Of a stretch of 64,000 nt of DNA, positions 7,480-16,369 are shown one piece after another. The translations under genes and the position numbers were made by a program. Below the pieces are notes generated by a model. It had not been told where the DNA came from and ran no database searches. It was given only the letters and a program-made list of their open reading frames with translations. Positions within the stretch are counted from its first letter, which is position 1. Each line of letters begins with the position of its first letter. Source of the stretch: Candidatus Latescibacterota bacterium (GTDB lineage Bacteria > Latescibacterota > UBA2968); NCBI GenBank assembly GCA_965205975.1, contig OZ242195.1, forward strand, positions 1,312,001 to 1,376,000, read 5' to 3'.

Positions 7480-9897
7480 ATGCGTTCTTATATATTGGTT
7501 TTCACGCTGATAGCAGTTGTAACTCCCATATATGCACAGGGTACGGTGCAACAAGTGGTAGGCGATCTCGTCTATGTGGAAGGGCTTTCGGCTGATCTGG
7601 ATGGCAAATTGCGGATTGCAGGCGATGATGGTGCGGTTTTGCAGGTGATCAAGGTGTTGCCCAATGTGGTGGTTGCGCGCGTGGTCGAGGAAAATGGCTC
7701 GGCAGTAAAATCTGGCGATCAAATTCAGGCGGATGATGGTACGCTTGCAGGCTCGCCGCGCAGGGTAGCGCATGCGACGCGGGTTGTTGCGGCGCCGCGG
7801 ATTGACGGGCGGTTGGACGACGAGGTTTGGCAACAGGCGCAGGCTGCGGAGGGGTTTGTTCAACGCGATCCGAAATACTGGATGCCGGTTACTGAGCGGA
7901 CGGTTGTGAAAATTATTTATGATAATGAGAAAATTTATTTTGGTTTTGAATGTTACGACAAAAATCCCGGTCTCATTGTTACCAATAATATGCGCCGAGA
8001 TTCTCAGCTTTCCGGCGATGACAATATTCAGTTGTTGCTCGATCCGTTTAATGACAAACAGAATGGGGTTTTCTTTTTTGTCAATGCACTCGGCGCACGG
8101 ACAGATATGCTTTTGTCAAATGAAGGGCGAACGACGAATGAAGATTGGGATTGTATCTGGGAGGCGCGGTGTGTGCGTCACGAGAGAGGCTGGACTGCCG
8201 AAATAGCGATTCCGTTTAATCAACTCCGTTTCAATCCGTCTGATGAGATGGAATGGGGGATTAACATGGGGCGTTATATCGGGCATAAGAACGAGGAGAC
8301 CGCATTTATTGTCGGGCGACATACGCCATCGCCCCGGCGGAGGTATCAGATGACAGATATGGGTGTGTTGCGCGGATTAAAGGCTGTTGAAAGAAAGCGG
8401 CTTTTCCAGATCAAGCCATATCTGTTGCCGGGAACTTCGCGCAATTTTGCAGGCGATGAGGGTGAGAATCGCACGTTTGAAGCAGGTGCAGATGTGCGTT
8501 ATGGCTTGACGCCTAATCTCGCACTGGATGTGTCTTATAATACGGATTTTGCCCAGGTCGAAGCCGATCAAGAGCAGGTGAATTTGACGCAGTTTTCCCA
8601 GTTTTTTCCCGAAAAGCGCGAGTTTTTTCTGGAGGGGGCGCAGTTGTTTGATTTTGGCGAGGCCGCGTCAACTCGCGGTGGCGATGTGCGCCCGCCAACA
8701 CTGCTGTTTTACAGCAGAAGAATCGGTCTGGATGGGGGGCAGCCCGTGCCGATTCTCGCAGGTGGCAAACTGGCTGGTAAGGCCGGTCGCACGAGCATTG
8801 GTGCGTTAAATGTTCTGACGGATTCTGAGACGTTGGACACGCAGACCCTGCCGCGTAGAAATTTTTCCGTGCTTCGGATCAAACGCGATGTGTTCGCGCG
8901 GTCCAATGTGGGTTTTATCTGGGTAAATAAACAAAGCGAAGTGTCCGAAGGTGGGTGGGGCGACTACAATCGCGCAGGGGGGCTGGATTTCAGTTTTTCG
9001 CCTTCAACCGCGGTCAATATACAGGCTTTTTACGCGCGTACCTGGGATACAGAACGAGAAGATGCAGACGATGCACGGTATCTTCGCTTTTCGTATAACG
9101 GTACCAAATACTCGGGTTCGGCAACTGTTCTGGATGTGGAAGATGATTTTGAGCCGGAGGCGGGGTTTGTCAATCGTCGGCGTGGGATTCGGGGATTTCG
9201 GCGCTACAATGTTAATCTATCCTATTTGCCGCGTCCCCAGGTCGCCAATATCCGCAATTTGAGATTCACGCCCGATATTCAGATAATTGAAGACGACGAA
9301 GGCGAGGTACCGTTCCAGCGGTTCAGACTTGACGGTGTGCTCGCACTTCAGACGGCTGACCGCTTTTTGGTGCGTATGGAAAGGACCCGCGATGTTGTGA
9401 CGCGGACTTTTAGACCGTCGCGCAAGCGACCCGATGTCGCCATTCCACCGGACGAATACACTTTTACATCGTTCAGGCTGGGACCGGATACGGCAAATTA
9501 TCGCAAATTGCAGTTGGATTTCGATTTTCTGGTGGGAACCTATTATACGGGACACCTGTATCGGGTGACGGCAGAAAATGCCTATCGGCCCAATGGCAGA
9601 TTGGGTATTGAGCTGATTTACGATGGCAATTGGATTCGCTTGCCACAGGCCAATCTCAATATTCAGGCATTGAGTACGCGGTTGATTTACTCGTTTACAA
9701 CCGATTTCTTTTTTAAATTTTTTGCACAGTGGAATAGTGACAGCGAATCCGTGGGCGCAAATTTTTTGCTCAATTACCGATTTCGCCCGGGCAGCGATAT
9801 TTTCTTTGTGTATGATCACGGGTTTGGAACCGATGGCAATCTTCACCAGACCGGCCGCGCATTGCTGCTCAAGGTGTCGTATTTGATTGGGTTGTGA
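7480..9897 (+). CDS. CBM9-like / DUF5916-type outer-membrane protein
   Basis: Signal peptide; PRIDGRLDD.VW and WTAEIAIPF (CBM9-like); NTDFAQVEAD and FFPEKREFFLEG; beta-strand C-terminus LLKVSYLIGL. Confidence 0.85.
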   Translation: MRSYILVFTLIAVVTPIYAQGTVQQVVGDLVYVEGLSADLDGKLRIAGDDGAVLQVIKVLPNVVVARVVEENGSAVKSGDQIQADDGTLAGSPRRVAHATRVVAAPRIDGRLDDEVWQQAQAAEGFVQRDPKYWMPVTERTVVKIIYDNEKIYFGFECYDKNPGLIVTNNMRRDSQLSGDDNIQLLLDPFNDKQNGVFFFVNALGARTDMLLSNEGRTTNEDWDCIWEARCVRHERGWTAEIAIPFNQLRFNPSDEMEWGINMGRYIGHKNEETAFIVGRHTPSPRRRYQMTDMGVLRGLKAVERKRLFQIKPYLLPGTSRNFAGDEGENRTFEAGADVRYGLTPNLALDVSYNTDFAQVEADQEQVNLTQFSQFFPEKREFFLEGAQLFDFGEAASTRGGDVRPPTLLFYSRRIGLDGGQPVPILAGGKLAGKAGRTSIGALNVLTDSETLDTQTLPRRNFSVLRIKRDVFARSNVGFIWVNKQSEVSEGGWGDYNRAGGLDFSFSPSTAVNIQAFYARTWDTEREDADDARYLRFSYNGTKYSGSATVLDVEDDFEPEAGFVNRRRGIRGFRRYNVNLSYLPRPQVANIRNLRFTPDIQIIEDDEGEVPFQRFRLDGVLALQTADRFLVRMERTRDVVTRTFRPSRKRPDVAIPPDEYTFTSFRLGPDTANYRKLQLDFDFLVGTYYTGHLYRVTAENAYRPNGRLGIELIYDGNWIRLPQANLNIQALSTRLIYSFTTDFFFKFFAQWNSDSESVGANFLLNYRFRPGSDIFFVYDHGFGTDGNLHQTGRALLLKVSYLIGL

Positions 9898-9923
9898 GAT
9901 AGGCTCTATCACAGAAATGAAAC

Positions 9924-9958
9924 AAAAAAGCACCCGAATAACACTCGGGTGCTTTTTT
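9924..9958. terminator. Bidirectional terminator
   Basis: AAAAAAGCACCCGA-loop-TCGGGTGCTTTTTT between convergent genes. Confidence 0.85.
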
Positions 9959-9980
9959 GTTTTTTAACCTGGTTGCATTC

Positions 9981-11681
9981 TCACAGCGCGAGGGCAACAC
10001 CTATGCCGACGATGGGAATGAGCAGGTATTTGAGCAGTCCGCTGCGTCTGCCCTGGATATTGCCGAGGATAGATGTTTCCAATTTTTCATTTCCTGTTTT
10101 GTAATACAGGCATTCTGTACCGGGAGTCGCGGCGATGGCAGTAACCCCGGGCCAAACGGGTTTGATGCTGCCCATGGGATAGAGAATGATATTTTCTCGG
10201 TGGCGTTTGTAATCGCCCATTTTGACCAGAAGCGCGTATTCTCGACCAAAAGTAATTTGATCGGGTTGAACAATAGGACCGAGTTCGTCCCCGACTACGG
10301 TTTGCAAACGAACCGTATCCGACGCGGTTTTGGCGGTGGGCAACCACAGACTGACGCGCGGTGAGATGGGTAGAAAAGTGGGAGCATCTGAAACGCGGAA
10401 TGAAATGGGAATGGCCATGTTTTGCGTGTCTTTGAGCATATAATGGCCTTTGGGAAGGGTGATGGAAAACTCTTGCTGCCGATTGGCGATATTGTCGTTC
10501 AGGATGTGTTCGGCAAGGGCGACGAGGCTGTCGTGCATGGCCTGTTCGTGCGAGGAGGTGGCCGGGGGCACGGGTGCTTCTCGCGTGAAGCGCACCTGTT
10601 CAAAGCGCAGGGTTTTGGAAGGCAGGTTGCGAATGGCGAGATAGGCCGCATTTACGTTGACATCTAATCGCCCGAGGCGCGTGTGCCATTGTTCGGCAAA
10701 GCGCGTGAGATCGCCCAGGCGGGACTCGTTTTTCCCTGGAAGGGGATTGGGTTCCTGCTCAATGGGAAAAGGAGAACGCCCCCGGGCTTCTTCAAAGAGT
10801 GCGTGAGCTTCTGAGAAGCGGCGGTATTTGCCGAGTACAATGCCGCGGTACACGTCAATTTGCGACAGCGCGCGGAGCAGGCCGCGTTCGCTTTTTCCCA
10901 TAAGACGCATCGTGCGTTCTAATTCGCGCGTCTGGTGGCTATAGTATTTCAGGTCTTCGATAAAAGGCATCAGGCGCGGATCGCTGAGGCGGATAGACGC
11001 ATTGGTTTCAACCGCGGGGACTGTTTCGCCAATGGCCAGGGCAGCGGCGAGGAGTTGCACGCTTTCGGCGAGGTATTGGTCTGCGATATCCACGAGACCG
11101 GGGATGGACAATTCCGTGAGTGGCAGCGGATTGCGGGTAAGCCTAATTTCTATGAGTTTGCCACGCGGGGGCAGAAAGAGGTCTTGTTCGATGAGGTTAA
11201 AGCCGGGTTTGCTGATTTCGAGATGGTATTTGCCCACAAAAAGGTCCGACATATAAGCCACATTGCCGCGTCCGATGTTGATAAACCCGGTGATGGTCGT
11301 GTCTTGATCTGCAAACCGAAGGTGTATTTCCGCGCCTAAAGCCGCGAGTTGATCGGATCGGATCTCCAGACGTGCTTTCTGACGTATGAGCGCGATATGC
11401 ACCGTATCTGCCAAAACGGTTGTCGTAAATGTGCGCGTGTAGGGCTGGTAGCCGTGTGCATACGCCTGAATTTTATCGCCAATGTTCAGCAACTTTTCTG
11501 TGGCAAATGGCGTATAACCCGCTTCCTGCCCATTGATGAAGATCTGGGCACCTGTGGGTTCTGAGCGAATGTGGATTTTCGTCTTGAGAAGCATCCTCGG
11601 CGCAGGCTCTGTTTCTTGAGCCTGGATATAGAACGGTGTGGTCAGCAGGATGCAAAATAAAATGAATCGCAGTGTGTTCAT
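9981..11681 (-). CDS. PEGA-domain protein with signal peptide and C-terminal membrane anchor
   Basis: Start MNTLRFILFCILL overlaps the upstream stop (ATGA); IRSEPTGAQIFINGQEAGYTP is PEGA-like; ends LLKYLLIPIVGIGVALAL. Confidence 0.8.
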   Translation of the reverse strand: MNTLRFILFCILLTTPFYIQAQETEPAPRMLLKTKIHIRSEPTGAQIFINGQEAGYTPFATEKLLNIGDKIQAYAHGYQPYTRTFTTTVLADTVHIALIRQKARLEIRSDQLAALGAEIHLRFADQDTTITGFINIGRGNVAYMSDLFVGKYHLEISKPGFNLIEQDLFLPPRGKLIEIRLTRNPLPLTELSIPGLVDIADQYLAESVQLLAAALAIGETVPAVETNASIRLSDPRLMPFIEDLKYYSHQTRELERTMRLMGKSERGLLRALSQIDVYRGIVLGKYRRFSEAHALFEEARGRSPFPIEQEPNPLPGKNESRLGDLTRFAEQWHTRLGRLDVNVNAAYLAIRNLPSKTLRFEQVRFTREAPVPPATSSHEQAMHDSLVALAEHILNDNIANRQQEFSITLPKGHYMLKDTQNMAIPISFRVSDAPTFLPISPRVSLWLPTAKTASDTVRLQTVVGDELGPIVQPDQITFGREYALLVKMGDYKRHRENIILYPMGSIKPVWPGVTAIAATPGTECLYYKTGNEKLETSILGNIQGRRSGLLKYLLIPIVGIGVALAL

Positions 11682-13066
11682 GGGGAGGTATCCTGTTTTT
11701 TGCTGAGTAGCGCGCTGTTGTGCTTTTCTTCGAGTTGACGCGCTTGCACATAGTTGCCCTGACTTTTGGCAATCCGATGAAATTCTTCCCAGTAGCGTTC
11801 TGGCGCGATGCGATAGGCCATTTCCGCGGCCTGGTATGCTCTGTCTCCCACATTTTGCAGATTGGAGTTGAAATAGGCAATCGCCAGGGTGATCAGGGCT
11901 TCGCCGCGGTCTTGCCAGCCAAAGGAGGTTACAGGATAAATAGTTGAGATGGCCTCTCGGTACGCGCCTTCTTTGAGTTTTACGCTCGCCAAACTGAGCG
12001 AAAGCCCGCCATAGGTATCGCACACTCTCGGTTCGAATTGGTTGTGCGCGTATGCGTATTTGGCATATTCAACGGCTCTGGGCAAGTCGTCTCGGTACGC
12101 GGTGAAGGCCATGTCGAGATAGAGGGCGGCGCGAGAGGTGTCGGATCTCGCATAGACCAGAGCGCGTTGCATAGCGTGGATTGCGCGGTTGGCTTCTTCT
12201 TCCTTGCTGTGGCGCAATCCCTTGAGGCGGTAGATGGCACAGCGCATGTTATAGCCGCCGTCAAAGCGCGCGGCAGCGAGCACTTGATTGAACCAGTCGG
12301 GGTTGTCGCCCAAAACGCCGCGGGAAGATGCGGCGGCAATTTTTGGGATGTAAAAATCGGGTTCTATGCCTTCAAAATTCGCCTGCCCGGCGGTTTCGAT
12401 CAGGTTCAGACTGTTTTCGATATAGACGCTTAAATAAGCCTGGAGGGTATCGCTCATGCTGCTGCGTTGCGGCGCGGCATAGACAATTTCCTTTTGCGTT
12501 CTGCCGAGAATCGCCATCCAAATGTCGCGCAGACCACCCTCTGCGAGATGCCATATCCGGTGCAAGGAGTCAATTGTTGCGGGTTGAAAGCGCGAGGGTA
12601 TCCAGGTGCTGTCTCGCAATACTGGCGGGGGCAAATCCAGCGGCAGAGGTTGGCGGTTGTTTTCGCGCTCAAGCACGAAGTTGGCACGCGCCATCGCGTA
12701 TTTGACGGTGAGACGTCCCAATTCGTAGCGAATATCGGGGTCTTGCTCGCGGTCAAGCGCCGTGCGGTAGGCGTCGGCACTTTTTCTGAGCAGGTCCAAT
12801 CGGTTGGGCGCGTCCTGGCCCGTGTCGTAGGCACGCTCGCCTGCCGTGCCCAGCCAGATATAATAGGCACTGGTAAAGATGAGGGCCTGGTTGCACGCAC
12901 GCTCAAAATGTGCGACGGCTTCAATATATCGCCCAAGCGCGTAAGCACTGCGGCCCTGCTCAAAAGACTGATAGGCGAGGCTGTCATCCTTTCCCTGTGC
13001 AAAAGAAAGGGCTGGCAAAATCAAAAAAGCGAATATAAGGAAGATTTTTTTCATAAGCGACCTCAC
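11678..13066 (-). CDS. Exported TPR-like helical repeat protein
   Basis: Signal peptide MKKIFLIFAFLILPALSFA; TPR-like FEQGRSAYALGRYIEAVAHFERA and further helical repeats; GTGA overlap with the upstream gene. Confidence 0.75.
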   Translation of the reverse strand: MRSLMKKIFLIFAFLILPALSFAQGKDDSLAYQSFEQGRSAYALGRYIEAVAHFERACNQALIFTSAYYIWLGTAGERAYDTGQDAPNRLDLLRKSADAYRTALDREQDPDIRYELGRLTVKYAMARANFVLERENNRQPLPLDLPPPVLRDSTWIPSRFQPATIDSLHRIWHLAEGGLRDIWMAILGRTQKEIVYAAPQRSSMSDTLQAYLSVYIENSLNLIETAGQANFEGIEPDFYIPKIAAASSRGVLGDNPDWFNQVLAAARFDGGYNMRCAIYRLKGLRHSKEEEANRAIHAMQRALVYARSDTSRAALYLDMAFTAYRDDLPRAVEYAKYAYAHNQFEPRVCDTYGGLSLSLASVKLKEGAYREAISTIYPVTSFGWQDRGEALITLAIAYFNSNLQNVGDRAYQAAEMAYRIAPERYWEEFHRIAKSQGNYVQARQLEEKHNSALLSKKQDTSP

Positions 13067-14427
13067 GAATTGCTCAGGGCGCGGTTGAGAAAGCGGATGC
13101 CCCGGCGCGCTTCGGTTTCTATGTGAAGGGCTTTGTCTATGCCCGAGCGTGCAAAAATCTGAATATCGTCGAGTTGGCCCAGCCGAAATGTGAGGATAAA
13201 TGCAACACCGTCGGCAAATTGTATTCTGGCTTTGTCTGGCGCCAATGTGAGTTGGGCATTTTCATATATTCTGTTTTGAGGCATTTTCAGTCGAGAAAGT
13301 GCGCGCTGGATACGGGTTAGCTGCACGAGTTCTGCCGAGAGACCAGCCGATGTATGAAAGTTGGAAAAACCAATGCGTCCAGCAGGTCGGTAGCCTTTGA
13401 GATCGGTGGATTCTGCTTGTTGCTCAGGCTGATCTTTACCCGCGCTCGCGCCAGTTGATGGCAATGTGGTAGGGGTGGGGGCGGGCATACTCATCGTGGG
13501 ACGCGCGACATGGACTTCTGGCCGCGAACCAAAAAACGAGGAGGGATTCGCGCCTCTGTCCAGATTGGGTGCCGAGACACGGGGCGGGGGTTTTAATCCA
13601 CCGAGCGATGGTCTGTCGAGTTGGCGCGGAATATCGGGTAGTGATGCGAGTGCCAATTTCGGTTTGTCCGGCAGCGCGATTTTAGGACGAGGCGCTGGCT
13701 TTGGGGCAGCCTGCACCCGGGGTTCTGGATCTGGTTTTGTTACGTTGACGTCCTCCCGCGTGTTTTTGCTCATGTCAAAGATGCCCTGTGCACTTACGAG
13801 CATATCTTCAAAATTTGTGACAATGGCTTTGAATGCCCGCCCGCCTTGGGGAGGACTCAGTGCTAATAGCAAGACGATGCCCAGTGCAAACGCACCGGCC
13901 AATGCGGGTAAAAAGCGTTGTTGTGTGCGTTGAATAGGGGCATAGGGTAAGCGGATGGACTGTGGTGGGGGAACTATCGCCTGGTCAGGAACAAGGGCGA
14001 TGGCGATTTCTATTTCATGTCGGCGATTGGGGAAGTCCGCCCAGAGTTTGGAAAGCCCCAGATAGTTCTGCCTGGCTACAAGCGCGCATGCTTCGTGAAA
14101 GATATGGTCCTTGTAGAAGCGGTTGATGATTTCGCGTGAGGGCAATTTGAAATGGCTCGATGGCGAAATCTGCCCTATGCGCACCTCAAAGCTGTCGGTT
14201 TTCAATGGAGGGGCATACCCCAGGTCTCGCAACTGTTTGAAGAGGTGTTCGATGGCCTGGTGATAGTCGCTTGTAAAGCGTTCGGGCGAGGGATAATTAC
14301 ATGCTCGCCGCGCCTCAGACAAGTTGCGAGCGCGCAGTATGGCAGATAATACGCTAAAAAATTTGGGATGATCCTTTCGCATGCTTTCAGCAGCACTCTG
14401 GATCATTTTTTTTTCACGGGGAGACAT
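13063..14427 (-). CDS. Single-pass membrane protein with proline-rich linker (TonB/TolA-like architecture) and extra N-terminal domain
   Basis: About 170 aa soluble N-part, TM ALAGAFALGIVLLLAL, PDPEPRVQAAPKPAPRPK-rich linker and a small C-terminal domain; follows exbBD-like genes. Confidence 0.65.
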   Translation of the reverse strand: MSPREKKMIQSAAESMRKDHPKFFSVLSAILRARNLSEARRACNYPSPERFTSDYHQAIEHLFKQLRDLGYAPPLKTDSFEVRIGQISPSSHFKLPSREIINRFYKDHIFHEACALVARQNYLGLSKLWADFPNRRHEIEIAIALVPDQAIVPPPQSIRLPYAPIQRTQQRFLPALAGAFALGIVLLLALSPPQGGRAFKAIVTNFEDMLVSAQGIFDMSKNTREDVNVTKPDPEPRVQAAPKPAPRPKIALPDKPKLALASLPDIPRQLDRPSLGGLKPPPRVSAPNLDRGANPSSFFGSRPEVHVARPTMSMPAPTPTTLPSTGASAGKDQPEQQAESTDLKGYRPAGRIGFSNFHTSAGLSAELVQLTRIQRALSRLKMPQNRIYENAQLTLAPDKARIQFADGVAFILTFRLGQLDDIQIFARSGIDKALHIETEARRGIRFLNRALSNS

Positions 14428-14435
14428 ATTCTATT

Positions 14436-14966
14436 TTACAACTTTCTTTTTTGACTTTCAAGCCCCCATTGCACAGTCTTAAATCCACTGTTGTTGAGGG
14501 CGTCGTACACGCCAACGGTATAAGTCACGGTTGCATCGCGTTCAAAATAGAGGCGCACCAAAATGTCATTGGGCTCAAATCCATGTTGTGCCTGTAGTGC
14601 GAGTAAAGCTTTTTTTACGGACAAAAATACAGCGCGTTCAATGCCGACCTGGTCGTTATCTGTGCGGTCTTGAAAGACCATATGCTCTTCCGTCGCAACC
14701 CCGCCTTTGTCAAATTGTACATAGGATTTTCCGATGATGATCTGCAAAAAACGCTCATCTGTGGGGTGGGGGGCAGAGCCTTTTTCGTCGGGTGCTTTAA
14801 TAAAATTGAGTTTTTGTGCGTGAACAAAGCGGTTGTGCAAATTGGCGAGATGGGTTTGCCACACGTTCTGAATGATAAAAAATGTTAGCAGCAAAAACAA
14901 GACATCAATAAACCCTTCGCCCGTGTCTAAAAGTGCTGCCAAAGGTCGCCTGTTGCGATGTCTCAC
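14436..14966 (-). CDS. ExbD/TolR-like protein
   Basis: TM FIDVLFLLLTFFII carrying the conserved Asp; periplasmic domain with ...ERDA...VYDALNNSGF. Confidence 0.8.
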   Translation of the reverse strand: MRHRNRRPLAALLDTGEGFIDVLFLLLTFFIIQNVWQTHLANLHNRFVHAQKLNFIKAPDEKGSAPHPTDERFLQIIIGKSYVQFDKGGVATEEHMVFQDRTDNDQVGIERAVFLSVKKALLALQAQHGFEPNDILVRLYFERDATVTYTVGVYDALNNSGFKTVQWGLESQKRKL

Positions 14967-14967
14967 G

Positions 14968-16221
14968 TCAATCTCCTATTCCTTCCCTCTTACCTATATC
15001 TATCTGATAAAAGTGCTGAATCAGGTTGAGCATGCGCGCCCGATGTTGCAGACTGCGGGCTTTGGTTTTTCGTATGAGGATCATGGATAGAATGCGTCCG
15101 AGAAATCCAATGGCTGTGGTTACAAGAGCAAAGTTGATATAATGCGCCATTTTGAGCTGGGTTTGGGCTGGGCCTTCGCCGACTTTCATGGTGTCTTCTA
15201 AAATTTTGAAGGCGTCTATCATGCCAATCACTGTGCCCAAAAGGCCCATGGAGAGCGATAGAAGGCCCAACATGCCAAAGCCTTCGGACAGGCGATCCTC
15301 AATTTCATCAAAGAGAAGATAGATTTTGTCGGTGCATCGCTCGACCAATCGCGCCTGGTCAGATGCGATTTCAGATTCGACAGATGTGAGGATAGCATAG
15401 AGTTCTGTGTTTTCAGACAGGGCGTAATCGGCGTTGTATTGCCCGCCCCATAGCAGGTTAATGCCCTCCTTCTGAACAATTTGCGCGTCGGAATTGGTGA
15501 AGAAGCGGTCGGGTGATAAGTCGTGAGATAAGACCTGGGCATAGCGCACAACCATATAGAAGGGCAAGGCGATCAGAAGCAGAATTAAAACTGTAGAAAG
15601 TGGACCGCTGATGTTGGAGATATAGCGTCCAATAGATTCGGCCAAATCACCGCCGCGAACAACCGTGGGTACGGCATTGTCGGCTGCAAACGCGATTTGG
15701 ATGTCCTCAAACTTGTATTCGAGCATCTGCGTATTGGGCGCAATGGGACCATCGGGTGTCTGGTCAAAGCCCATCGCATAGCTCCGGTTGTTGTACTGAA
15801 AGCTCAAATCGTCAATCACGGCACTGTGGCTGGCATTGCGCGTGCGAATGACGAGGCTGTCGATGGGCATGTCGGGTATTGCGATCCATTCGCGTTGCGT
15901 ACCAGCGTGATAGGTCGAATCACGCCCCTGTGTGTGTACGATTACGGCGATGGGTAAAAAACGATCTACATTCTTAAAGCGGATATCCGTGACTGCAATT
16001 TTTTGATTTGGATTGTCGGGTTGTTGGAATGTGACGGTAAGTGCCTTCCAAAAAGTTCCCCCCTGAAGGACTTGCCCACCTTGCAGTCCGGTGATAGCTC
16101 CATCGAGCCAGATCGCCGCTTTTGTGCAGATATAGAGGCCAACAAAGAGGGTAGCGAGATAGAGTGCTACCTGGGCAATGGGACTTTTTTTTAGAATGGG
16201 ATGATTTAGAATCTGTGCCAT
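14968..16221 (-). CDS. MotA/TolQ/ExbB proton-channel family protein with inserted extracytoplasmic domain
   Basis: GLLGTVIGMIDAF and ALVTTAIG motifs; two further N-terminal TMs flank a roughly 150 aa soluble domain. Start uncertain (16221-16287). Confidence 0.85.
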   Translation of the reverse strand: MAQILNHPILKKSPIAQVALYLATLFVGLYICTKAAIWLDGAITGLQGGQVLQGGTFWKALTVTFQQPDNPNQKIAVTDIRFKNVDRFLPIAVIVHTQGRDSTYHAGTQREWIAIPDMPIDSLVIRTRNASHSAVIDDLSFQYNNRSYAMGFDQTPDGPIAPNTQMLEYKFEDIQIAFAADNAVPTVVRGGDLAESIGRYISNISGPLSTVLILLLIALPFYMVVRYAQVLSHDLSPDRFFTNSDAQIVQKEGINLLWGGQYNADYALSENTELYAILTSVESEIASDQARLVERCTDKIYLLFDEIEDRLSEGFGMLGLLSLSMGLLGTVIGMIDAFKILEDTMKVGEGPAQTQLKMAHYINFALVTTAIGFLGRILSMILIRKTKARSLQHRARMLNLIQHFYQIDIGKREGIGD

Positions 16222-16369
16222 GTATTCTCGGTATTTGGACATGTAATAAGGAATCTCCACATACATCATATTAGAACTGATTTGCAAAATCTAAGGCTTT
16301 ATTCCGAAATTATCCACCAAAACTTTTAACCATATGGGGTGAAATTGATTCGGTCCTGACAACTGAAAG

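Follow-up and report, generated by a model that had tools for sequence, protein, structure and literature searches.

A likely new variant of envelope force machine in Latescibacterota: an ExbB/ExbD-type operon whose transducer carries a predicted sigma-4-like head

Introduction

What is a stator of the MotA/TolQ/ExbB family for, when the operon that encodes it holds none of the partners with which such motors are known? Known 5:2 ion motors drive TonB, TolA and GltG, and are predicted to drive vWA transducers as well. The question is raised by five consecutive minus-strand genes in a window of 64,000 nucleotides, the whole stretch of DNA analysed here, from Candidatus Latescibacterota bacterium (GenBank assembly GCA_965205975.1, contig OZ242195.1, positions 1,312,001 to 1,376,000). 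An earlier note on this DNA described the genes as an orphan ion-motor operon and proposed that they form a self-contained energised envelope machine. Here, we conclude that the operon probably encodes a new variant of envelope force machine. On the reading that we favour, whose chances we put at about even, it would be a dedicated proton motor with its own TonB-shaped transducer and a TPR/PEGA scaffold, working on an envelope target, and the cytoplasmic head of the transducer would be a docking module. The comparison with known systems draws on PMC12204202, PMC6957404, PMC9008036, PMC11761067, PMC9389320, PMC10907165 and PMC7826278 with its supplement.

Results

A five-gene unit kept in order and under selection

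The operon comprises gene 1 (14968..16221, minus strand, as are all five), encoding a MotA/TolQ/ExbB-family pentamer subunit of 417 residues; gene 2 (14436..14966), an ExbD/TolR-like subunit with the channel residue Asp21; gene 3 (13063..14427), a candidate force transducer with a cytoplasmic head, one transmembrane helix (TM), a Pro-rich linker and a periplasmic tip; gene 4 (11678..13054), an exported helical-repeat (TPR-like) protein; and gene 5 (9981..11681), an exported PEGA protein with a C-terminal TM. As the earlier note had said, the operon itself holds no receptor, tolB or pal gene, OmpA-domain partner or nuclease. We surveyed 168 genomes of the phylum, among them that of the window (G000; 98% complete) and a genome of another family (G077), which carries locus L038. 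The stator gene was found in 21/168 genomes, namely the window's genome, 19 of the 20 others of its genus and one genome of another family. The order of genes 1 to 5 is kept in all full-length loci (18/18), including that of the different family, where the flanks differ; the neighbourhood survey that had been called for thus finds genes 3 to 5 together with the stator. Six further surveyed loci are generic stators. Purifying selection acts on all five genes in 4/4 pairs, with ratios of nonsynonymous to synonymous substitution rates (dN/dS) of 0.05-0.22; the values are 0.05-0.10 for gene 1 (0.02-0.03 in the stator core), 0.05-0.06 for gene 2 and 0.12-0.19 for gene 4.

Genes 1, 2 and 3 also stand in this order in both metagenome loci (L045 and L046; 2/2). 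A search of 1.84 billion representatives matched eight proteins, four of them at E < 1e-30, and three of these four are distant (47-50% identity) and lie on contigs of 1.6-3.2 kb; among the 80 retained of 127 confirmed matches of a metagenome scan, two were family members and the remainder generic stators. The RNA libraries with the best matches to the operon are labelled as sponge and coral metagenomes. In four RNA libraries, contigs of relatives (mostly 90-99% alike) extend over operon and flanks without distinction, and are therefore no sign that the operon is transcribed. In one relative, an IS605/TnpB-like remnant is inserted between genes 1 and 2 (L033:9230-10060) and gene 3 is split by a frameshift.

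An ExbB/TolQ-type stator with intact channel residues

Gene 1 matches PF01618 above the Pfam cut-off (residues 314-396, E 4e-11) and contains both of the motifs noted before, GLLGTVIGMIDAF and ALVTTA. Four TMs are predicted (15-33, 207-225, 317-335 and 365-383); the first two enclose an extracytoplasmic domain, an arrangement seen previously, although the domain measures about 170 residues and not 150. Thr330, Thr368 and Thr369 are invariant in 6/6 diverse rows, and Thr330 and Thr369 align with the pore-ring threonines of ExbB/TolQ. Gene 2 matches PF02472 (ExbD) weakly, below the cut-off (E 3e-4 over 19-165), and its channel Asp, said to be kept, is indeed invariant (Asp21; 11/11). In the gene 1 family (7/7 rows), a Phe occupies the position of the TM3 glutamate and an Arg-Ile-Leu/Val-type sequence replaces the Ala-Ile-Pro turn. 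Gene 1 is not an ExbB equivalog (17.7 bits with TIGR02797, against a cut-off of 206.2), and no NCBIfam equivalog cut-off was approached by any protein of the operon. Gene 2 lacks an OmpA-type peptidoglycan-binding domain and the operon has no linked flagellar or nuclease genes, which sets the pair apart from both MotAB and ZorAB. Vibrio TtpC is an ExbB-type protein with a periplasmic extension. ExbB with an extension of this sort, and TPR partners, are already described (PMC9008036; PMC6957404); TM1 of gene 1 may be cleaved, as it is in the long ExbB of Serratia (PMC9008036).

In a stator tree made by a quick method (121 columns; 74/106 rows after removal of near-copies; no AglR or TtpC rows; backbone unresolved), the seven family rows cluster together (support 100, with a stem of 2.2 changes per column). 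This cluster falls within an ExbB/TolQ assemblage (81) that is itself unresolved; E. coli MotA, the ZorA-like protein of the window's genome and two other odd stators stand apart from it, all of them on long branches. Judged by its sequence, gene 1 is an ExbB/TolQ-type stator that is nested in no canonical clade resolved by this tree. A position outside ExbB/TolQ is not borne out; that no resolved canonical clade contains the stator is.

A transducer-shaped protein with a cytoplasmic head

The TM and the Pro-rich linker reported for gene 3 are both present (TM at 172-190; 19% Pro over 124 residues), and the 170 residues N-terminal of the TM had been overlooked. Gene 3 has no Pfam or NCBIfam match. 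An AlphaFold2 model, built from 17 rows, had no Foldseek match at E 0.001; it is confident for two domains, residues 1-71 and 346-454, between which lie four helices (98-145), a TM helix (173-190) and a disordered Pro-rich stretch. An ESM Atlas search with the whole protein gave a best score of 0.82, to unnamed clusters, and is a lead only.

Residues 1-71 (14215..14427, minus strand) are predicted to form a helix-turn-helix like region 4 of extracytoplasmic function (ECF) sigma factors, with an acidic recognition helix (predicted local distance difference test score, pLDDT, about 90). Searched against 48,161 chains, the domain aligned with region 4 of SigL at Z 9.4 (root-mean-square deviation 1.7, 67 residues aligned) and the top 15 rows were all sigma factors (15/15), to be read with the caveat that helical domains with Z under about 13 can reflect a common arrangement. 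Sequence profiles are silent, with no match to sigma region 4, so the likeness depends on the model and on how uniform the fold matches are; on these grounds the cytoplasmic head is predicted to have a sigma-4-like fold. In 56/61 homologues, the helix at the recognition position carries a net negative charge, compared with charges of +1 to +4 in the 11 that could be scored of the 12 ECF sigma factors of the window's genome (11/11) and of +3 in the sigma factor linked to the operon in L038 (see below; register by eye in each case). With such an acidic helix, the head probably does not recognise a -35 element. No other part of gene 3 is under so little constraint (dN/dS 0.27-0.51 vs 0.09-0.18 elsewhere in the protein).

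Where an anti-sigma domain would lie, the head is followed by a conserved four-helix cytoplasmic domain (residues 94-146; 13990..14148, minus strand; dN/dS 0.09-0.17), for which we found no profile support against nine anti-sigma N-termini and no outside matches. Assignment to the FecR-type anti-sigma domain of Bacteroidetes is not supported, since 10/60 shuffles scored as high.

The periplasmic tip (residues 346-454; 13066..13392, minus strand; pLDDT 75-91) is a predicted beta-alpha-beta-meander-alpha domain of ~110 residues, modelled as a beta-meander of four to five strands closed by a helix. In an alignment of 54 rows, 71/108 columns of the tip are at least 90% conserved, and tip and linker have dN/dS values of 0.12-0.18. 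The best fold rows are middling (polo-box, Z 7.1; colicin N receptor-binding domain, Z 5.5); the 50 rows of two fold searches, in which the tip was taken within the whole gene 3 model, include neither TonB nor TolA. Pfam and NCBIfam, hhalign against the TonB_C sequences of the window's genome, and a PDB profile search (0 matches) likewise gave no TonB_C match, and no TolA match emerged from Pfam, profile-profile or fold searches, in agreement with the earlier statement that the tip has no recognisable TonB C-domain. A TonB_C identity, suggested by eye, is unsupported by the hhalign, PDB profile and fold searches; absence from such lists is not exclusion, and a remote TonB_C origin of the tip is still conceivable. 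Nor is the tip a vWA domain, as it is a ~110-residue beta-meander with a helix and Pfam gave no match. The segment after the TM is conserved and, by eye, does not fit the published D-box pattern (PMC10907165).

Exported partners encoded by genes 4 and 5

That gene 4 encodes an exported TPR-like protein and gene 5 an exported, membrane-anchored PEGA protein agrees with what we find. Gene 4 has an N-terminal hydrophobic leader and weak TPR matches in Pfam and NCBIfam, all below cut-off. Gene 5 matches PEGA (PF08308) at 35-90 (E 6e-9), and its sister-family copy has two PEGA stretches; the protein is built of a leader, one or two PEGA/transthyretin-like domains, a helical hairpin region and further beta domains, and ends in a TM at 548-566, with a basic patch before the hydrophobic helix. 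Its model is poor (mean pLDDT 44) and the fold matches are generic, residues 103-185 being transthyretin-like at Z 6.8.

An ECF sigma gene inside the operon of a sister family

In L038, whose gene 1 is 59% identical to that of the window, an open reading frame of 221 residues lies between genes 2 and 3 and ends 30-40 bases before gene 3. It encodes a full-length ECF sigma factor (TIGR02937, E 1.5e-10 over 32-186; hhalign probability 85 against the ECF sigma factors of the window's genome). With this protein as query, a match was found in 1/168 genomes and in one further database cluster. The operon lacks the sigma gene in 17/18 loci, including the window; gene 3 comes directly after gene 2, with no sigma gene between, in L045 (86%) and L046 (75%). 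No sigma remnant was seen in the gaps between genes 2 and 3 of L034, L036 and L037. Elsewhere in the window's genome (G000:C1:3685847-3689246), a canonical tonB-exbB-exbD set is followed by genes for an ECF sigma factor, an anti-sigma factor and a heavy-metal-resistance-like protein, a second motor-sigma linkage.

Other motors and export systems in the genome

The window's genome has six stator matches, namely two canonical ExbBD-TonB loci, a ZorA/ZorB/HNH-like locus, a pair linked to FHA and kinase genes, an odd pair and the present operon. One of the canonical loci (5283639-5288406) has the order exbB-exbD-tonB-TPR. TonB-dependent receptors give 17 matches in this genome and TonB_C gives 10, with gene 3 not among the latter even at E 1. 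The ZorA/ZorB/HNH-like locus (G000:C1:4387123-4390031), made up of a ZorA-like gene (436 residues, three TMs, long tail), a ZorB-like gene with an OmpA domain and an HNH-type gene, resembles Zorya type II. A further stator pair (G000:C1:1182796-1190773) lies among genes for FHA-domain proteins, FHA-bearing trypsin-like proteases and a kinase-FGE-sulfatase protein. The odd pair (253 and 151 residues; G000:C1:482573-485123) stands behind a gene for an exported protein of 457 residues, a relative of which, by eye, is encoded near the G077 operon (L219:4591-5874); the 151-residue partner has Glu instead of Asp at the start of its TM.

No match to TolB_N or Pal was found in the window's genome, that of a diderm (0 each), and the sole OmpA match is the ZorB-like gene, so the operon is not part of a Tol-Pal system by this measure. 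Pal-like matches are missing from 20/21 genomes of the host genus and from 15/15 of another genus without the operon. The idea that the operon substitutes for Tol-Pal was dropped, as no link emerges: Pal-like matches are missing without the operon too, and most matches elsewhere are below the cut-off.

PorV-like barrels number nine in the window's genome, alongside 12 FlgD_ig matches, and 4-14 per genome across this genome and 30 relatives; together, the barrels and the FlgD_ig proteins suggest a type IX-like export route. Downstream of the G077 operon, on the same strand, come a gene for a secreted Ig/FN3 protein, with a FlgD-like C-terminal motif (by eye), and a PorV-like barrel gene (E 0.011).

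Boundaries and flanks of the operon

The sequence contains the five minus-strand open reading frames of the earlier description, with its 1-bp and 8-bp gaps, its ATGA overlap and a terminator-like hairpin. The GTGA overlap between genes 3 and 4 exists if the GTG at 13066 is the start of gene 4; the ATG at 13054, 12 bases on, leaves an 8-bp gap instead, and we favour it because this position begins Met-Lys in 14/14 aligned orthologues. Gene 1 could equally well start at 16242, where an in-frame ATG follows GGAG. The hairpin (9920..9962, assigned to neither strand; 20 pairs and a T-run) lies between gene 5 and a convergent DUF5916 gene; terminator-like sites in the region number 8, compared with 8.4 in shuffles, and hence show no excess. 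The G+C content of the operon resembles that of its flanks. A candidate promoter/operator 5' of gene 1 (16290-16330 of the window; AAAAGTTTTGGTGGxTAATTT...TAAAxCCTTAxATT) is found in most same-genus loci and not in L038. The convergent gene (7480-9897 of the window) encodes an exported CBM9-like/DUF5916 protein of 805 residues, with several paralogues per genome; it adjoins the operon in most same-genus loci and has no match in G077.

Discussion

In the mechanism that we propose, genes 1 and 2 encode a divergent ExbB/ExbD-type stator with its channel residues intact, probably a 5:2 proton motor. This stator would drive gene 3, the TonB-shaped transducer, by binding it, and the tip of gene 3 would bind and pull against a periplasmic TPR/PEGA scaffold made by genes 4 and 5, the output being mechanical work on an envelope target. 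The head of gene 3 would most likely be what is left, in degenerate form, of an ECF sigma/anti-sigma unit, which one sister-family genome still has complete; in the host genus, it may serve as a protein-docking module, comparable to the FHA and GYF heads of GltG/GltJ, with no part in DNA binding or promoter recognition. We favour this dedicated force machine because the gene order is kept in 18/18 loci, all genes are under selection, the Thr ring and the Asp are kept and gene 3 has the three-part build known from TonB, TolA and the vWA transducers (PMC12204202); because the tip and linker of gene 3 (0.12-0.18) are more constrained than its sigma-4-like head (0.27-0.51); because the TM of the sister-family gene 3 has S-x3-H, as in the SHLS motor-binding motif; because TPR partners of transducers are known from Vibrio TonB2 (PMC6957404), Agl-Glt (PMC11761067) and the vWA loci (PMC12204202); and because a linked sigma gene occurs in only 1/168 genomes.

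Several observations weigh against it. All seven rows of the gene 1 family (7/7) have Leu at the TM2 proline, have lost the TM3 proline and have gained an Arg, so rotation is not guaranteed. The mid-TM His of gene 3 is missing in 53/54 rows (a His stands only at the TM boundary in four more), and motor binding would therefore need another surface of gene 3; L038 has the sole mid-TM His of the 54 rows, in its S-x3-H, with the L and S of SHLS missing. One complete genome of the same genus lacks the operon, with the operon-flanking genes 1.36 Mb apart, and the operon is thus dispensable. No conserved gene for an outer-membrane target adjoins the operon, and the family is too tiny for a co-evolution test. 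The proposal of a self-contained energised machine stands in so far as the operon is a conserved, selected unit with an intact-looking channel; it may or may not be self-contained, as 17 receptor matches and nine PorV-like barrels are encoded elsewhere in the genome.

The sigma-like features invite another explanation, motor-gated signalling across the envelope, in which the proton motor would pull gene 3, an anti-sigma-like receptor, releasing an ECF sigma factor (or a sigma-4 decoy that acts on RNA polymerase or on another anti-sigma factor), and so convey membrane energy or envelope tension to transcription. The full-length ECF sigma gene directly before gene 3 in L038, the combination of a sigma-4 fold at the N-terminus of gene 3 with a conserved four-helix domain before its TM, the purifying selection that still acts on the head, and the anti-sigma factors of ECF255, encoded at position +1 and carrying a TM and TonB_C (PMC7826278 supplement), make this possible, if doubtful. 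The sigma gene, however, is missing from the operon in 17/18 loci and in L045/L046 and the query was unmatched in 167/168 genomes; the recognition helix is acidic (56/61), unlike those of the 11/11 scored ECF sigma factors; in the FecR-type test, 10/60 shuffles scored as high as the four-helix domain; and the head is the part of gene 3 under least constraint. The fuller version, a proton-motor-gated transcription switch in which a 5:2 stator pulls an anti-sigma/sigma-4-decoy transducer and membrane energy or envelope tension would set ECF-dependent transcription with no receptor or protease cascade in the operon, we consider unlikely. That the operon is an ordinary, very divergent Ton system, with gene 3 a TonB paralogue energising a subset of distantly encoded TonB-dependent transporters and with TPR/PEGA helpers after the manner of Vibrio TonB2, would accord with the 17 receptor matches, with the exbB-exbD-tonB-TPR order of a canonical locus in the same genome, with the binding of TonB paralogues by long ExbB forms (PMC9008036) and with the last two strands and helix of gene 3, which by eye resemble the TonB_C pattern. 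Two canonical ExbBD-TonB loci are already present, however, the 10 TonB_C matches exclude gene 3 even at E 1, the predicted four-to-five-strand meander is unlike the TonB_C arrangement and the SHLS His is missing in the host genus; this explanation we regard as quite improbable.

Still less credible is a motor that energises export or surface display through the PorV-type (type IX-like) pathway: the G077 neighbours of the operon and the nine PorV and 12 FlgD_ig matches of the window's genome speak for it, but the linkage is seen in one genome only, neither G077 gene has a tblastn match in the window's genome, and PorV-like genes occur in 31/31 relatives, including 13 without the operon. The patchy distribution and a stator with an extra domain might recall a Zorya-like anti-phage sensor, which we find barely plausible; PADLOC gave no match for genes 1 to 3 or gene 5 (and two weak Cas8 rows on gene 4), gene 2 has no OmpA domain, there is no nuclease or helicase, the locus is fixed, of normal G+C and strongly conserved across the genus, and the ZorA/ZorB/HNH-like locus of the genome lies elsewhere, its stator branching apart from gene 1.

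Seen as a dedicated force machine, the operon has published relatives. The vWA force transducers of Williams-Jones et al. (PMC12204202), which adjoin tolQ/tolR-like genes and are of unknown function, likewise combine motor genes, a protein with a TM, a Pro-rich linker and a non-TonB tip, and a TPR gene, with no receptor. Operons of a receptor-less stator, a non-TonB transducer and a TPR protein are thus on record (PMC12204202), and in this respect the earlier interpretation was overstated. The present operon differs in its tip (a beta-meander and helix and not vWA), in having one ExbD-like gene and not two and in the missing SHLS His within the genus, and adds a sigma-4-like head, a PEGA partner and, on its pentamer subunit, an extracytoplasmic domain. 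Latescibacter, sigma and PEGA each occur 0 times in the main text of PMC12204202, whose supplements may list further transducer types. With Ton (ExbB-ExbD-TonB) and Tol-Pal (TolQ-TolR-TolA), the operon shares the stator family, the Thr ring and Asp, the gene order and the build of the transducer; it differs in lacking a TonB_C/TolA-III match and a linked receptor, TolB or Pal, in its four-TM gene 1, and in a long-branch stator whose pore helices show Pro changed to Leu and Ala to Arg. The Vibrio TonB2/TonB3 systems (TtpB-TtpC-ExbB-ExbD-TonB-TtpD; PMC6957404) also have a TPR gene right after the transducer, and the long ExbB of Serratia (PMC9008036) is also an ExbB-type protein with a periplasmic extension, but both have a true TonB_C and feed iron receptors, and neither has a PEGA gene or a cytoplasmic head (PMC6957404; PMC9008036).

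Myxococcus AglRQS-GltG/GltJ-GltD/E (PMC11761067) resembles the operon in that its transducer joins folded cytoplasmic domains through a disordered linker to a tip, to which a periplasmic TPR protein binds; GltG/J, however, have FHA, ZnR and GYF heads and TonB-like tips and work with two ExbD-like subunits, whereas the operon has one ExbD-like gene, no FHA or GYF match in Pfam and no counterpart of the outer-membrane Glt genes (PMC11761067). The ECF255 sigma/TonB_C anti-sigma pairs of Bacteroidetes (PMC7826278 supplement) share an ECF gene followed by a gene whose product has one TM and a periplasmic part like that of a transducer, as well as a carboxypeptidase-regulatory (PEGA-like) domain; they differ in their TonB_C tip, in having no sigma-4 fused to the anti-sigma factor and in that no motor genes are named (PMC7826278 supplement). 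A literature search, with subscription journals outside its coverage, found no paper on the five-gene operon. Within the compared literature, the plan of a stator, a non-TonB transducer and a TPR protein is already published, and the sigma-4-like head, the fold of the tip and the PEGA partner have no match.

The operon has a very narrow range, one genus and a few relatives, and its hosts are uncultured. It widens the set of transducers of 5:2 ion motors by one more design, in which the periplasmic tip differs and the cytoplasmic head is predicted to be sigma-4-like; in one lineage, an ECF sigma gene stands within the operon. Should the head still contact the transcription machinery, a rotary ion motor would here be linked directly to gene expression.

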